This document shows, in pieces, positions 3,904-64,000 of a stretch of DNA of 64,000 nt. The position numbers and the translations under genes are program-made. The DNA is from Escherichia coli (GTDB lineage Bacteria > Pseudomonadota > Gammaproteobacteria > Enterobacterales > Enterobacteriaceae). The notes beneath the pieces were generated by a model. That model had not been told where the DNA came from and ran no database searches. It was given only the letters and a program-made list of their open reading frames with translations. Positions within the stretch are counted from its first letter, which is position 1. Each line of letters opens with the position of its first letter. The DNA lies in NCBI RefSeq assembly GCF_003790525.1, contig NZ_CP033635.1, one strand, 5' to 3'.

Positions 3904-4968
3904 ATGAGTAAAGTGAAAAGTATCACCCGAGAATCCTGGATCCTGAGCACTTTCCCGGAGTGGGGTAGCTGGCTGAATGAAGAAATTGAACAAGAGCAGG
4001 TCGCCCCTGGCACATTTGCGATGTGGTGGCTAGGCTGCACCGGGATCTGGCTGAAATCAGAAGGTGGCACCAACGTTTGCGTTGATTTCTGGTGCGGCAC
4101 TGGCAAACAAAGTCACGGTAACCCGTTAATGAAACAGGGTCACCAGATGCAGCGCATGGCTGGCGTGAAAAAACTGCAGCCAAACCTGCGCACCACCCCG
4201 TTTGTTCTTGATCCGTTTGCGATTCGCCAGATCGACGCGGTACTGGCGACTCACGATCACAACGATCATATCGACGTTAACGTCGCTGCTGCCGTGATGC
4301 AGAACTGTGCTGATGACGTACCGTTCATTGGGCCGAAAACCTGCGTTGATTTGTGGATTGGCTGGGGCGTACCGAAAGAGCGTTGCATCGTCGTTAAACC
4401 GGGCGACGTAGTGAAGGTAAAAGACATTGAAATTCATGCACTTGATGCTTTCGACCGCACGGCACTGATCACCCTGCCTGCCGATCAAAAAGCAGCTGGC
4501 GTACTGCCGGACGGCATGGACGATCGCGCGGTAAACTACCTGTTCAAAACCCCAGGCGGTACCCTGTATCACAGCGGCGATTCCCACTACTCTAACTACT
4601 ATGCAAAACATGGTAATGAGCATCAGATCGACGTGGCTTTAGGTTCATACGGCGAAAACCCACGCGGTATTACCGACAAAATGACCAGTGCTGATATCTT
4701 GCGTATGGGCGAAGCGCTGAATGCGAAAGTGGTTATCCCGTTCCACCACGACATCTGGTCAAACTTCCAGGCCGATCCGCAAGAAATCCGCGTGCTGTGG
4801 GAGATGAAAAAAGATCGTCTGAAGTATGGCTTCAAGCCGTTTATCTGGCAGGTGGGCGGCAAATTTACCTGGCCGCTGGATAAAGACAACTTCGAGTACC
4901 ACTATCCGCGTGGTTTCGATGATTGCTTCACTATTGAACCGGATCTGCCGTTCAAGTCGTTCCTGTAA
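3904..4968 (+). CDS. ulaG: L-ascorbate-6-phosphate lactonase UlaG (metallo-beta-lactamase fold)
   Basis: [23 protein letters not shown]..., HDHNDH metal-binding motif, 354 aa. Confidence 0.93.
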
Positions 4969-57908: not shown

Positions 57909-57987
57909 CCCGCCGACTAACATCCTTCCCCCGTCCGTTGTATAGTGACCTCTCTCTTGCGGTTCCATCTGTTCTTGCGAGGTGTTT

Positions 57988-58326
57988 ATGCTTGATGAAA
58001 AAAGTTCGAATACCGCGTCTGTCGTGGTGCTATGTACCGCACCGGATGAAGCGACAGCCCAGGATTTAGCCGCCAAAGTGCTGGCGGAAAAACTGGCGGC
58101 CTGCGCGACCTTGATCCCCGGCGCTACCTCTCTCTATTACTGGGAAGGTAAGCTGGAGCAAGAATACGAAGTGCAGATGATTTTAAAAACTACCGTATCT
58201 CACCAGCAGGCACTGCTGGAATGCCTGAAGTCTCATCATCCATATCAAACCCCGGAACTTCTGGTTTTACCTGTTACACACGGAGACACAGATTACCTCT
58301 CATGGCTCAACGCATCTTTACGCTGA
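57988..58326 (+). CDS. cutA: divalent-cation tolerance protein CutA
   Basis: ORF 57982..58326; [45 protein letters not shown] (112 aa). Confidence 0.94.
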
Positions 58327-59999
58327 TCCTGCTACTTTGCAGCACTTCCGTTTTTGCCGGATTATTCGACGCGCCGGGACGTTCACAATTTGTCCCCGCG
58401 GATCAAGCCTTTGCTTTTGATTTTCAGCAAAAGCAACATGACCTTAATCTGACCTGGCAGATCAAAGACGGTTACTACCTCTACCGTAAACAGATCCGCA
58501 TTACGCCGGAACACGCGAAAATTGCCGACGTGCAGCTGCCACAAGGCGTCTGGCATGAAGATGAGTTTTACGGCAAAAGCGAGATTTACCGCGATCGGCT
58601 GACGCTTCCCGTAACCATCAACCAGGCGAGTGCGGGAGCGACGTTAACTGTCACCTACCAGGGCTGTGCTGATGCCGGTTTCTGTTATCCGCCAGAAACC
58701 AAAACCGTTCCGTTAAGCGAAGTGGTCGCCAACAACGCAGCGTCACAGCCTGTGTCTGTTCCGCAGCAAGAGCAGCACACCGCGCAATTGCCCTTTTCCG
58801 CGCTCTGGGCGTTGTTGATCGGTATTGGTATCGCCTTTACGCCATGCGTGCTGCCAATGTACCCTCTGATTTCTGGTATCGTGCTGGGCGGTAAACAGCG
58901 GCTCTCCACTGCCAGAGCATTGTTGCTGACCTTTATTTATGTGCAGGGGATGGCACTGACTTACACGGCGCTGGGTCTGGTAGTTGCCGCCGCAGGGTTA
59001 CAGTTCCAGGCGGCGCTACAGCACCCATACGTGCTCATTGGCCTCGCTATCGTCTTTACCTTGCTGGCGATGTCAATGTTTGGCTTGTTTACCCTGCAAC
59101 TCCCCTCTTCGCTGCAAACGCGCCTCACGCTGATGAGCAATCGCCAACAGGGCGGCTCACCTGGCGGTGTGTTTGTTATGGGAGCGATTGCCGGACTGAT
59201 CTGTTCACCATGCACCACCGCACCGCTTAGCGCGATTCTGTTGTATATCGCCCAAAGCGGGAACATGTGGCTGGGGGGCGGCACGCTTTATCTCTATGCG
59301 TTGGGCATGGGCCTGCCGCTGATGCTAATAACCGTCTTTGGTAACCGCCTGCTGCCGAAAAGCGGCCCGTGGATGGAACAAGTCAAAACCGCGTTTGGTT
59401 TTGTGATCCTCGCACTGCCGGTCTTCCTGCTGGAGCGAGTGATTGGTGATATATGGGGATTACGCTTGTGGTCGGCGCTTGGTGTCGCATTCTTTGGCTG
59501 GGCCTTTATCACCAGCCTACAGGCCAAACGCGGCTGGATGCGCGTGGTGCAAATAATCCTGCTGGCAGCGGCATTGGTTAGCGTGCGCCCACTTCAGGAT
59601 TGGGCATTTGGTGCGACGCATACCGTGCAAACTCAGACGCATCTCAACTTTACACAAATCAAAACGGTAGATGAGTTAAATCAGGCGCTCGTTGAAGCCA
59701 AAGGCAAACCAGTGATGTTAGATCTCTATGCCGACTGGTGCGTCGCCTGTAAAGAGTTTGAGAAATACACCTTCAGCGACCCGCAGGTGCAAAAAGCGTT
59801 AGCAGACACGGTCTTACTTCAGGCTAACGTCACTGCCAACGACGCCCAAGATGTGGCGCTGTTAAAGCATCTTAATGTCCTTGGCCTACCGACAATTCTC
59901 TTTTTTGACGGACAAGGCCAGGAGCATCCACAAGAACGCGTCACGGGCTTTATGGATGCTGAAACCTTCAGCGCACATTTGCGCGATCGCCAACCGTGA
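58302..59999 (+). CDS. dsbD: thiol:disulfide interchange protein DsbD
   Basis: ORF 58221..59999 trimmed to [20 protein letters not shown] (565 aa); C-terminal thioredoxin CVAC motif; 25-bp overlap with cutA. Confidence 0.95.
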
Positions 60000-60035
60000 A
60001 CGACACTTGCAGTGGGAAAGACGGAGGAAAATAGC

Positions 60036-60611
60036 GTGCAACGTGAAGATGTACTGGGAGAAGCCCTGAAATTATTAGAATTACAAGGGATTGCCAACAC
60101 CACGCTGGAGATGGTTGCTGAACGTGTGGATTATCCACTGGACGAGCTGCGCCGCTTCTGGCCAGACAAAGAGGCAATCCTCTACGATGCGCTGCGTTAT
60201 CTTAGCCAACAGATAGATGCCTGGCGTCGTCAGCTGATGCTGGACGAAACGCAAACCGCCGAACAAAAGTTGCTGGCACGTTATCAGGCGTTATCGGAGT
60301 GCGTTAAAAACAACCGCTATCCGGGCTGTCTGTTTATCGCTGCCTGTACGTTTTATCCCGATCCTGGCCACCCTATTCATCAACTAGCCGATCAGCAAAA
60401 AAGCGCGGCCTACGATTTCACCCACGAACTGTTAACCACGCTGGAAGTTGACGATCCGGCGATGGTAGCAAAGCAGATGGAACTGGTGCTGGAAGGCTGT
60501 TTAAGCCGAATGCTGGTGAATCGTAGCCAGGCGGATGTCGACACCGCACATCGGCTGGCGGAAGATATCCTGCGCTTCGCCCGCTGCCGCCAGGGTGGCG
60601 CACTGACCTGA
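60036..60611 (+). CDS. yjdC: TetR-family transcriptional regulator YjdC
   Basis: ORF 60012..60611; GTG start at 60036 gives 191 aa (V)[30 protein letters not shown]. Confidence 0.85.
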
Positions 60612-60678
60612 CAGAAACACAGAAAAGAAGCGATTTGCCGCAATCTTAAGCAGTTGAATCGCTTTTACTGAAATTAGG

Positions 60679-60707
60679 TTGACGAGATGTGCAGATTACG
60701 GTTTAAT
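60679..60707 (+). promoter_or_regulatory. pheU promoter
   Basis: TTGACG -35, 17-bp spacer, TTTAAT -10, ending 10 bp before the mature tRNA 5' end. Confidence 0.7.
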
Positions 60708-60717
60708 GCGCCCCGTT

Positions 60718-60793
60718 GCCCGGATAGCTCAGTCGGTAGAGCAGGGGATTGAAAATCCCCGTGTCCTTGGTTCGATTCCGAGTCCGGGCACCA
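60718..60793 (+). tRNA. pheU: tRNA-Phe (anticodon GAA)
   Basis: GCCCGGATAGCTCAGTCGGTAGAGCAGGGGATTGAAAATCCCCGTGTCCTTGGTTCGATTCCGAGTCCGGGCACCA; pheU rather than pheV because of the yjdC/dsbD context. Confidence 0.96.
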
Positions 60794-60868
60794 CTTTCAC
60801 TTCCAGATTCATCTCCCGAACTCCACGAAACTCAAGTATAATCACATCGTTACAAGCAATCTGAACAT

Positions 60869-60899
60869 CCTGAACTCCACCGAACTCTACTGAACTCTC
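60869..60899 (+). repeat. three tandem 10-bp direct repeats (tgaactccac / cgaactctac / tgaactctct) in the integrase leader
   Basis: Read directly; 10-bp periodicity; a fourth copy (gaactccac) at 60818; consensus TATAAT hexamer at 60837..60842. Confidence 0.6.
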
Positions 60900-60969
60900 T
60901 CTCAATCAAGCGTTCATTGGGGGCACCGGTGGGGGCTCATTGTGTTCAGTCAGTTTCAGGAGCCCCCAT

Positions 60970-62154
60970 ATGGCACTTACAGCCAGACAGGTCGAAACAG
61001 CCAGACCTAAAGAAAAAGACTATAAACTCTCTGACGAACGTGGTTTATATCTGCTGGTAAAAACCACGGGTGCCCGCTACTGGCGGCTTAAATACCGGAT
61101 AGCAGGAAAAGAGAAAAAACTGGCCCTCGGCGTCTATCCCGACGTCTCCCTTGCTGAAGCCAGAATCAAACGCGACGATGCCCGAAAAATTATCTCCGAA
61201 GGTGGCGACCCGGGCGAAAAGAAGCGAAAGGAAAAACTCACTCAGAAAATCTCTGCCACCAATACGTTCCATGCCCTTGCTACGGAATGGCATCAGCATA
61301 AATCTTTGTCATGGTCTGAAAGTTACGCCAGAAGCGTACTGGAGGCTCTGGATAAAGATATTTTCCCGTATCTGGGCAAACGAAGCGTTACTGATATCCT
61401 CCCGCTGGAAATGCTGGAAATTCTGCGCCGCATAGAAAAACGTGGCTCGCTGGAAAAACTTCGTAAGGTGCGTCAATACTGTAATCAGATTTTTCGTTAT
61501 GCCATCGCCACCGGACGAGCCACTGTCAATCCGGCATCTGAACTGACCAGTACGCTGGCGGCGCCAAAAGCTGCACATTTCCCCCACCTGAGAGCAGATG
61601 AGCTCCCTGTTTTTCTCCGGAAGCTCGCTGAATATCATGGCAGTCCTGTTACCCGCATGGCGACAAATCTGCTGCTTCTGACAGGCCTCAGAACGATTGA
61701 ACTACGGTCCGCTGAATGGTCAGAAATTGATTTTGATAATGCCCTGTGGACAATCCCTGAAAGCCGCATGAAAATGCGACGTAAACATGTCGTACCACTG
61801 TCACGACAGGCCACTGACATTCTGCTGCAGCTCAAAACTTTCTCCGGACAATACCGGCTGGTTTTCCCGGGACGTTGTGATATCAACAAGCCAATGAGCG
61901 AAGCCAGCATCAATATGGTGCTCAAACGTATCGGTTACGATGGCAGGGCAACCGGTCATGGTTTTCGTCACACCATGAGTACCATTCTGCACGAACAGGG
62001 CTTTAATTCTGCCTGGATTGAAATGCAGTTAGCTCATGTGGATAAAAATTCCATCAGGGGTACCTATAATCATGCCCTGTATCTCGATGGTCGCCGTGAA
62101 ATGATGCAATGGTACGCTGACTACATTGATTCACTTTCCATCCAGGAGAGTTAA
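60970..62154 (+). CDS. P4-type tyrosine integrase (phage/genomic-island integrase)
   Basis: ORF 60940..62154 trimmed to MALTARQVETARPKEKDYKLSDERGLYLLVKTTGARYWRLKYR; C-terminal catalytic region HGFRHT...LAHV...Y; directly 3' of a tRNA gene. Confidence 0.9.
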   Translation: MALTARQVETARPKEKDYKLSDERGLYLLVKTTGARYWRLKYRIAGKEKKLALGVYPDVSLAEARIKRDDARKIISEGGDPGEKKRKEKLTQKISATNTFHALATEWHQHKSLSWSESYARSVLEALDKDIFPYLGKRSVTDILPLEMLEILRRIEKRGSLEKLRKVRQYCNQIFRYAIATGRATVNPASELTSTLAAPKAAHFPHLRADELPVFLRKLAEYHGSPVTRMATNLLLLTGLRTIELRSAEWSEIDFDNALWTIPESRMKMRRKHVVPLSRQATDILLQLKTFSGQYRLVFPGRCDINKPMSEASINMVLKRIGYDGRATGHGFRHTMSTILHEQGFNSAWIEMQLAHVDKNSIRGTYNHALYLDGRREMMQWYADYIDSLSIQES

Positions 62155-62196: not shown

Positions 62197-62221
62197 CCCT
62201 CTGATCTGTAAGATCAGAGGG
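62197..62221. promoter_or_regulatory. perfect 10-bp inverted repeat (ccctctgatc-tgtaa-gatcagaggg) between integrase and regulator
   Basis: Read directly; no adjacent U-tract, so either a protein-binding palindrome or a non-canonical terminator. Confidence 0.5.
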
Positions 62222-62303
62222 ATTCCGTTAACTTACAATAAGTGATATTGGTTGTCTGGAGATTTAGGGGGACGGTCTACTATAATAATTAGCAGGAGAT
62301 AAT

Positions 62304-63314
62304 ATGTCACTTAAGGCGATTGCCACTGCACTCGGAGTTTCTGTCACCACTGTCAGTCGGGCTCTTGGAGGCTATGCAGATGTGTCAGCTTCCACCCGTG
62401 CACGGGTGGAAGCTGAAGCTCGTCGACGCGGTTACCGTCCTAATACTCAGGCAAGAAGACTCAAAACCGGTAAAACCGATGCTGTCGGTCTGGTTTATCC
62501 TGGACGTGATGTGCCATTTAACAGTGGTGTTTTTATGGATATGGTCAGTTGCATCAGCCGGGAACTTGCTCACCATGATATTGACTTACTACTGATAGCT
62601 GATGATGAGCATGCCGATTGCCACAGCTATATGCGGCTTGTTGAAAGTCGCAGGGTTGATGCTCTCATCATTGCACACACTCTGGATGACGATCCCCGTA
62701 TCACACACCTTCATAAAGCAGGTATTCCATTTCTGGCTCTTGGTCGGGTACCATCTGGTCTGCCCTGTGCGTGGTTTGACTTTGATAATCATGCCGGGAC
62801 TGGACAGGCAACCCAGAAACTGATTGCTTTGGGACATAAACGTATTGCATTGTTGAGTGAAGACACTTCACATAGCTATGTTGTTGCAAGACGTCAGGGA
62901 TGGCTTGATGCACTGAATGAGCATGAACTGGAAGATACATGGCTGCGGCTGGTTTCTCCCACACGGCGAGCAGGATATCAGGCCGTGATGGAGTTAATGT
63001 CACTACCGATACCACCAACAGCTATTATTACTGACAATGACCTGAGTGGAGATGGTGCTGCCATGGCACTGCAGTTGAGCGGTCGTCTTTCAGGAAAAGA
63101 TGCGGTATCTCTGGTTGTATATGATGGTTTGCCACAGGACAGTATTATTGAGCTGGATGTGGCTGCAGTTATTCAGTCAACACGAAGCCTCGTTGGTCGC
63201 CAGATTTCCGAGATGATATATCAGATAATTACTGATTCATCATCAAAACCACTACAGGTTGTCTGGAACCCGGTATTTTATCCGGGAAAGACGATTCATC
63301 CTCCTTGCTCCTGA
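62304..63314 (+). CDS. LacI-family transcriptional repressor (RafR-like)
   Basis: 336-aa ORF MSLKAIATALGVSVTTVSRALGGYADVSASTRARVEAEARRRGYRPNTQARRL, N-terminal HTH plus periplasmic-binding-protein-like fold. Confidence 0.85.
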   Translation: MSLKAIATALGVSVTTVSRALGGYADVSASTRARVEAEARRRGYRPNTQARRLKTGKTDAVGLVYPGRDVPFNSGVFMDMVSCISRELAHHDIDLLLIADDEHADCHSYMRLVESRRVDALIIAHTLDDDPRITHLHKAGIPFLALGRVPSGLPCAWFDFDNHAGTGQATQKLIALGHKRIALLSEDTSHSYVVARRQGWLDALNEHELEDTWLRLVSPTRRAGYQAVMELMSLPIPPTAIITDNDLSGDGAAMALQLSGRLSGKDAVSLVVYDGLPQDSIIELDVAAVIQSTRSLVGRQISEMIYQIITDSSSKPLQVVWNPVFYPGKTIHPPCS

Positions 63315-63337
63315 TTTTTTTATCCAGCTCACATATC

Positions 63338-63372
63338 CGAAACGTTTTGGTTGATACCCGAAACGTTTCGGA
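63338..63372 (+). promoter_or_regulatory. twin palindromic operators flanking a TTGATA -35-like hexamer
   Basis: ccgaaacgttttgg (63338..63351) and perfect palindrome ccgaaacgtttcgg (63359..63372), centres 21 bp apart, with ttgata between them. Confidence 0.75.
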
Positions 63373-63409
63373 TCAACAGTAAGGCATCCCTGAGAAAGGA
63401 GAATGTCTT

Positions 63410-64000
63410 ATGGTTTCAAAGTACTGCAGACTGAGCAGTCCTCGCTCTGATTTAATTATTAAAACCCGTCCACATGCAGAAATTATCTGGTGGGGCTCTG
63501 CACTGAAACATTTCTCACCGGATGACTGTGCCAGCCTGGAAAGACCGGTTGCGAATGGTCGTCTGGATATTGATACGCCACTAACACTGATGGCTGAAAA
63601 TGCCCTGGGACTTTTTAGCTCTCCGGGACTGGAAGGACACAGGAATGGGCTGGATGCATCTCCTGTTTTTTATACAGTTGACGTGGAACATACCGAAAAC
63701 ACTCTGAGACTTACCAGTGAAGATTCGGTAGCCGGCCTGCGTCTGGTCAGCGAGCTGGTGATGACGCCATCAGGAATTCTGAAAGTTCGTCATGCACTGA
63801 CCAACCTCAGAGAGGGGGACTGGCAGATAAATCGTTTCGCCATCACTTTACCTTTAGCGGAACGTGCGGAAGAAGTCATGGCTTTTCACGGACGCTGGAC
63901 TCGTGAATTTCAGCCGCACAGGGTACGTCTCACTCATGATGCTTTTGTTCTGGAAAATCGCAGAGGGCGGACATCTCATGAGCATTTTCCGGCGCTGATT
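63410..64000 (+). CDS. GH36 alpha-galactosidase (RafA-like), N-terminal 197 codons; continues beyond window end
   Basis: Manual translation MVSKYCRLSSPRSDLIIKTRPHAEIIWWGSALKHF...ENRRGRTSHEHFPALI, open to window edge; not in ORF track because it has no stop. Confidence 0.7.
   Translation, partial: MVSKYCRLSSPRSDLIIKTRPHAEIIWWGSALKHFSPDDCASLERPVANGRLDIDTPLTLMAENALGLFSSPGLEGHRNGLDASPVFYTVDVEHTENTLRLTSEDSVAGLRLVSELVMTPSGILKVRHALTNLREGDWQINRFAITLPLAERAEEVMAFHGRWTREFQPHRVRLTHDAFVLENRRGRTSHEHFPALI

Follow-up and report, generated by a model that had tools for sequence, protein, structure and literature searches.

Probable twin operators of the raf operon between rafR and rafA on an Escherichia coli chromosomal island, and their conservation across raf loci

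According to papers of the Schmitt laboratory from 1990 and 1994, RafR, the repressor of the raf operon, reportedly binds two 18-bp operators that flank the −35 box, with melibiose said to be the inducer and CRP the activator. At operators of the LacI/GalR family in general, hinge helices of the repressor insert at a central CpG. Among the plasmids that carry raf genes is pIP1206, whose GenBank entry we take to be AM886293.1. It is from AM886293.1 that RafR was taken in a study of LacI/GalR engineering (PMC13056197), with melibiose as its reported ligand; titles in the reference list of that paper state that the raf repressor binds two adjacent raf operators, and the primary raf references listed there are Aslanidis and Schmitt 1990 (J Bacteriol 172:2178), Aslanidis, Muiznieks and Schmitt 1990 (Mol Gen Genet 223:297) and Muiznieks and Schmitt 1994 (Mol Gen Genet 242:90). 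In the passages of Ravcheev et al. 2014 (PMC4052901) drawn on here, RafR of Enterobacteriales is described with only double sites, at 21–22 bp, and these double sites are taken as obligatory cooperative binding. The twin-operator system and the principle of 21-bp spacing are thus already published. A full-text literature search for the operator sequences themselves returned unrelated primers only.

The locus compared here with these systems lies in a 64,000-nucleotide stretch of Escherichia coli DNA (the window), in which a gap of 95 bp is flanked by a LacI-family repressor gene (62304–63314) and the ATG of an alpha-galactosidase gene (63410). With the raf operon of pRSD2 it shares the gene order rafR followed by rafA-rafB-rafD(-rafY), and a pair of adjacent near-identical palindromes that in pRSD2 are bound by a LacI-family repressor. 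However, pRSD2 is a plasmid, whereas the raf operon analyzed here is part of a chromosomal island, and sequence identity is established with the raf plasmid pIP1206 only. The features of the region are as follows.

62304..63314, plus strand: rafR, gene of a LacI/GalR-family repressor of 336 aa (from its ORF, Pfam, structure alignment and plasmid identity).
63318..63333, no strand assigned, centre 63325.5: putative CRP site TTTTA-N6-TCACA (from sequence and conservation).
63335..63352, no strand assigned: O1, 18-bp window with the 14-bp core CCGAAACGTTTTGG at 63337–63350 (direct reading, repeat search and pattern search).
63351..63356, plus strand: −35-like hexamer TTGATA (direct reading; putative role).
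63356..63373, no strand assigned: O2, 18-bp window with the 14-bp core CCGAAACGTTTCGG at 63358–63371 (direct reading, repeat search and pattern search).
63372..63387, plus strand: conserved block ATCAACAGTAAGGCAT after O2 (from conservation, 1.31 bits per column).
63396..63401, plus strand: Shine-Dalgarno sequence AAGGAG of rafA (direct reading).
63410..64000, plus strand: rafA, alpha-galactosidase (GH36), 5' part only, running off the window (start as in RefSeq for identical loci).

The genes on either side are raf genes. The protein cluster of RafR matches Pfam families PF00356, PF00532 and PF13377; the protein aligns to the structures of LacI, PurR and CcpA from the helix-turn-helix through the end of the sugar-binding core, carries the recognition helix SVTTVSRAL and the hinge YRPNTQARR, and is 98.8% identical in tblastn to the regulator encoded by pIP1206 and some 145 further raf plasmids, such that ~1.2% of its residues differ from the common plasmid allele. 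An NCBIfam search with the N-terminal 196 aa of RafA gave no match; rafA orthologs carry Glyco_hydro_36N, Melibiase and Glyco_hydro_36C. Downstream of rafA, identical and near-identical loci encode an MFS (LacY-type) permease, a GH32 hydrolase and a carbohydrate porin, and the order rafR-rafA-rafB-rafD-rafY (gene names as used in PMC4809568) is shared by chromosomal loci that are 100% and 99.8% identical and by pIP1206. The 1.8 kb from 62200 to 64000 is 100% identical in several E. coli chromosomes, 99.8% identical in strain E24377A and 98.7% identical to about 170 plasmids, most of them conjugative; the rafR–rafA intergenic region itself does not differ at a single base between the window, pIP1206 and E24377A.

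Between the two genes the sequence reads TTTTTTTATCCAGCTCACATAT-CCGAAACGTTTTGG-TTGATAC-CCGAAACGTTTCGG-ATCAACAGTAAGGCATCCCTGAGAAAGGAGAATGTCTT-ATG. The half-site sequence is CCGAAAC, and the central CG falls at 63343/63344 in O1 and at 63364/63365 in O2. A repeat search recovers O1 and O2 both as an 18-nt direct repeat with a spacing of 21 nt and as 16-nt inverted arms that are 94% complementary. In an earlier note on this DNA two palindromes had been described with their centres exactly 21 bp apart, the first with one mismatch and the second perfect, and with a TTGATA hexamer between them; direct reading bears out each of these points, as the centres fall at 63343.5 and 63364.5, the core of O1 has a single non-complementary pair (G3/T12), that of O2 is a perfect 14-bp palindrome, and the 7-bp gap between them contains TTGATA (63351–63356). 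The range given there, 63331–63409, does contain the operators but is slightly generous, as the operators proper occupy 63335–63373 and the remainder is promoter-proximal leader.

The palindromes resemble other operators of the family: those of PurR and GalR, the cre sites of CcpA and the symmetric lac operator share with them a 14–18-bp palindrome and a AAACGTTT-type core around CpG, and PurR/GalR/CcpA/LacI-type systems have a TVSR-type recognition helix and a YxPNxxAR hinge in common with RafR (PMC2978694, in which the TVSR group, RafR included, is discussed). The CGAAAC half-site around a central CG, together with the invariant TVSR helix, fits the LacI/GalR pattern as far as sequence can tell, while among the LacI/GalR operators compared the outer half-site bases CCG/CGG are specific to RafR. 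The arrangement of the sites is also different, as the raf sites are adjacent, 21 bp apart and bracket the putative −35, whereas lac and gal sites lie ~90–400 bp apart and are looped. The alignment of RafR (336 aa) to LacI ends near residue 310, and RafR appears to have no counterpart of the C-terminal tetramerisation helix of LacI.

To follow the sites through evolution, diverged raf loci were collected in two sets. The first came from tblastn on plasmids (RafR 65–89% identity; L006–L010) and the second from a protein search plus exact-protein look-ups (RafR 55–77% identity; L011–L020), the sources of the second set being an Enterovibrio-labelled MAG, Cronobacter, Lelliottia, Pluralibacter, Pantoea, Providencia, Serratia, Dickeya, a Yersiniaceae MAG and Kluyvera. 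The 14 further distinct rafR-rafA-rafB loci that were compared come from these sources and from Escherichia plasmids and Klebsiella. Searching the RafR protein against genome contigs yielded only distant LacI paralogs (27–31% identity; Caulobacter, actinomycetes), and these were left out. All diverged loci retain rafR, rafA (GH36) and rafB (LacY-type), and the DNA of rafR is 58–89% identical across the 14 further loci (58–64% to the window in the more distant ones). Both sites are nevertheless present in 13 of the 14, and 12 have the 21-bp spacing, in agreement with the double sites at 21–22 bp in the part of the RafR regulog of Ravcheev et al. (PMC4052901) considered here. Counting the window, 16 of 17 loci are two-site, 15 of those with exactly 21 bp from start to start.

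With the alignment anchored on O2, information content within the intergenic region peaks in O2 itself, at 1.89 bits per column, followed by O1 at 1.67 (14 loci), GATCACA at 1.52, the 16 nt after O2 at 1.31, the 7-bp spacer at 1.06, the sequence further upstream at 0.95 and the leader at 0.68. The TCAC of GATCACA lies exactly 8 nt before the start of O1 in all 16 two-site loci, and in the one locus that has no O1 (L019) it keeps an unchanged register relative to O2. From the end of O2 to the ATG there are 36–39 nt in all loci except L019. No ortholog departs from SVTTVSRAL in the recognition helix. Judged from the sequences compared, both sites and their 21-bp spacing, as well as the TCACA and post-O2 blocks, are under strong evolutionary constraint, a pattern that fits a protein-binding promoter architecture under purifying selection.

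The elements of a promoter can be placed around the palindromes. The TTG that begins the −35-like hexamer is kept in most orthologs (TTGGCA, TTGCCA, TTGCTA, TTGGTA, TTGTTA), and the ATCAACAGTAAG block downstream of O2 is likewise conserved; transcription probably starts within 63372..63387. A candidate weak −10, AACAGT at 63375–63380, matches the consensus in three of six positions and stands at an 18-bp spacer from TTGATA. A scan with the sigma-70 consensus called no promoter at the position of the rafA operators, because this −10 candidate is weak; a weak −10 is the usual signature of an activator-dependent promoter. A class I CRP site has the form TGTGA-N6-TCACA and is centred near −61.5. 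The putative CRP site here reads TTTTA-TCCAGC-TCACA, with a perfect right half and three of five matches in the left, and its centre lies ~61–62 bp upstream of the start inferred from AACAGT. Across the 17 loci the CRP-like right half is present at a fixed distance in every one (as TCACG in two), and the left half is weak, variable and poorly conserved; the GATCACA block is probably half a CRP site.

Nearly all orthologs have the GGAG of the Shine-Dalgarno sequence equally far from the ATG, the Serratia version being GGAA. One nt after this GGAG, and 7 nt before the ATG of rafA, an out-of-frame ATG occurs at 63403 (63403–63412 in the window), and the motif GGAG(A)ATGYCY.ATG recurs in most orthologs. 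This ATG is unlikely to serve as a start codon, because it is too near the Shine-Dalgarno sequence, and conservation of the motif may reflect only the constraints on a translation-initiation region.

Taken with the literature, these data make it very probable that the palindromes are O1 and O2 of the raf operon, repressed by RafR, released by melibiose and aided by CRP. The suggestion in the earlier note that the arrangement matches the raf operon and marks a repressor-controlled promoter gains support from the flanking raf genes, the gap identical to that of pIP1206, the conserved twin sites and the double sites in the regulog passages of PMC4052901; the raf regulatory region found here is real and in all likelihood functional. 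The exact −10, the transcription start, CRP dependence, RafR binding and melibiose induction we infer or take from the literature, and the following mechanism is proposed on that footing. Without inducer, two RafR dimers would occupy the region, one on each palindrome. O1 abuts the upstream edge of the −35 TTGATA, and O2 would fill the 17–18-bp spacer to the weak −10, so that the two bound dimers would occlude RNA polymerase from the rafA promoter. Melibiose, formed from raffinose or imported with it, would release RafR; the promoter would then fire, helped by CRP on the TCACA half-site that immediately precedes O1, ~61 bp upstream of the start.

Other explanations of the palindromes were weighed. 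It is very improbable that they act mainly at the RNA level, with O1 and O2 pairing in read-through transcripts of rafR as a 16-bp hairpin, by which the rafR message would be terminated or stabilised, and protein binding being secondary. RNA of 63300–63400 does fold with O1 paired to O2 (−32.2 kcal/mol, z = −4.4), no other terminator is predicted after rafR on the plus strand, and in two plasmid alleles (L008 and L009) the substitutions O1 A6>T and O2 T9>A preserve the complementarity of O1 with O2 while breaking each palindrome. However, since any two copies of one palindrome can pair, the fold is to be expected as a by-product; the stem is not followed by a T run (GGATCAACAG), and the terminator scan found none here. 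The complementarity is moreover broken in L011 (O2 A6>T), L010 (O2 C2>A) and L015 (O1 G14>A), L019 has lost O1 and keeps O2 exactly, and it is the sequence itself that is conserved, beyond pairing, as expected for a protein site. A search of Rfam over the palindromes on both strands returned only sub-threshold look-alikes of miRNA hairpins (31 bits against a gathering score of 81), which were rejected as inverted-repeat artefacts.

Binding by a regulator other than the adjacent RafR, whether a different LacI/GalR paralog of the host or a global regulator, is likewise highly unlikely. The AAACGTTT core is common to many LacI-family operators, and NCBIfam, which holds no RafR-specific model, gives for RafR only matches to models of other family members that fall below their cut-offs; yet sites and regulator gene are found together in about ten genera, be it on plasmids, islands or chromosomes, the recognition helix remaining invariant, and work whose titles are listed in PMC13056197 assigns the sites to the raf repressor. 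Furthermore, the window and the 17.8-kb locus of E24377A contain no other strong site, as expected for a local regulator; L002 has two sites with 3 mismatches, located in its integrase and porin genes respectively, which were treated as chance.

That the palindromes arose by chance and have no function can practically be dismissed, as this explanation has no support other than that AT-rich intergenic DNA contains short palindromes, while the sites are near-invariant where flanking coding DNA is ~60% identical, and two of the matches to the operator pattern, at ≤1 mismatch, lie 21 bp apart where 0.28 matches are expected in all at ≤2 mismatches. The pattern search of the 64-kb window at ≤2 mismatches found 3 matches, a number reached in none of 100 shuffles; the third (13569, 2 mismatches) overlaps a minus-strand ORF of 243 aa and is probably a chance match.

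With O1 and O2 read as RafR operators, the imperfection of O1 deserves comment. The O1 core CCGAAACGTTTTGG with T12 is kept in Escherichia, Klebsiella, Cronobacter, Lelliottia, Pluralibacter, Providencia and Kluyvera, and O2 stays perfect. Because at least seven genera share it, the imperfection (T for C at core position 12) probably did not arise by random decay, as far as the compared sequences indicate. A bolder reading, which we consider doubtful, is that the imperfection has been selected and, taken with the near-obligate spacing of 21 bp, that the two RafR dimers form a single asymmetric unit aligned on one face, in which the upstream site is deliberately the weaker, as opposed to two independent operators. 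If this were so, the weaker O1 would tune the threshold of induction or the access of CRP, and the mirror-image changes of L008 and L009 described below would reflect the two-fold symmetry of the unit.

Several loci depart from the common arrangement. In Serratia (L017, 3997–4093) the spacing is 20 bp and both sites read CCAAAACGTTTTGG; the hinge of this RafR is YQPNALARR instead of YRPNT.ARR, and its recognition helix is unchanged. In the Yersiniaceae MAG (L019, 4006–4157) unrelated sequence replaces O1, and GATCACA and a perfect O2 remain in register. Together the 20-bp locus and the O2-only locus imply that neither strict helical phasing nor the presence of two sites is absolutely required; both the Serratia spacing and the one-site promoter go unmentioned in the passages of PMC4052901 used for comparison. 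In the two plasmid alleles of 80% identity (L008 and L009, locus 4012–4104) O1 is CCGAATCGTTTCGG (starting with TCG in L009) and O2 is CCGAAACGATTCGG. In L008 the two are exact reverse complements of each other, and in both alleles the A>T change is restricted to the two outer half-sites and is mirror-symmetric about the −35-like hexamer. These mirror changes could stem from homogenisation of the inverted repeat by template switching, or could reflect a two-fold symmetric repressor assembly; the pattern is anecdotal, because it represents a single evolutionary event.

The operon is part of an island, the far end of which lies beyond the window. Upstream in the window (57982–62154) are cutA, dsbD and yjdC/dicD, then a tRNA-Phe gene (60718–60793), a P4-type tyrosine integrase (60940–62154) and rafR; the tRNA gene presumably occupies the pheU position of the K-12 map. 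In strain 23CRST029 the same integrase-rafRABDY block is found beside the other tRNA-Phe gene, after yqgA (pheV position), and in E24377A the block stands beside an integrase within a larger SPI-7-type island. The location of the block beside different tRNA-Phe genes in two strains implies that the island uses either tRNA-Phe gene.

Just upstream of rafR, at ~62231–62283 (best match 62239–62271), is a dispersed repeat of 40–50 nt that occurs in 3995 of 5426 E. coli genomes, at a median of 3 places and at most 41. Both pIP1206 and L009 have a copy immediately next to an IS2/IS3-family transposase gene, on the side of its start codon, which makes it probable that the repeat upstream of rafR is a solo terminal repeat from an IS2-like element. 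Of the promoter-like matches for rafR the best is TGGAGA-18-TATAAT (62257–62286), whose −35 hexamer (62257–62262) falls within this repeat. Between the integrase stop and rafR, at 62197–62221, there is also a hairpin with a perfect 10-bp stem, CCCTCTGATC-TGTAA-GATCAGAGGG, which has no T run; pIP1206 and E24377A carry the same inverted repeat of 27 nt.

What the comparison adds to the published system is the conserved imperfection of O1, the 20-bp variant, the single-operator variant and the mirror substitutions of L008 and L009, and the comparative table forms a compact data set on the evolution of adjacent LacI-family operators. Beyond annotation the significance is small. For the organism, the presence of a complete and apparently intact raf regulatory region on a chromosomal island means that use of raffinose and melibiose should be inducible and catabolite-controlled.
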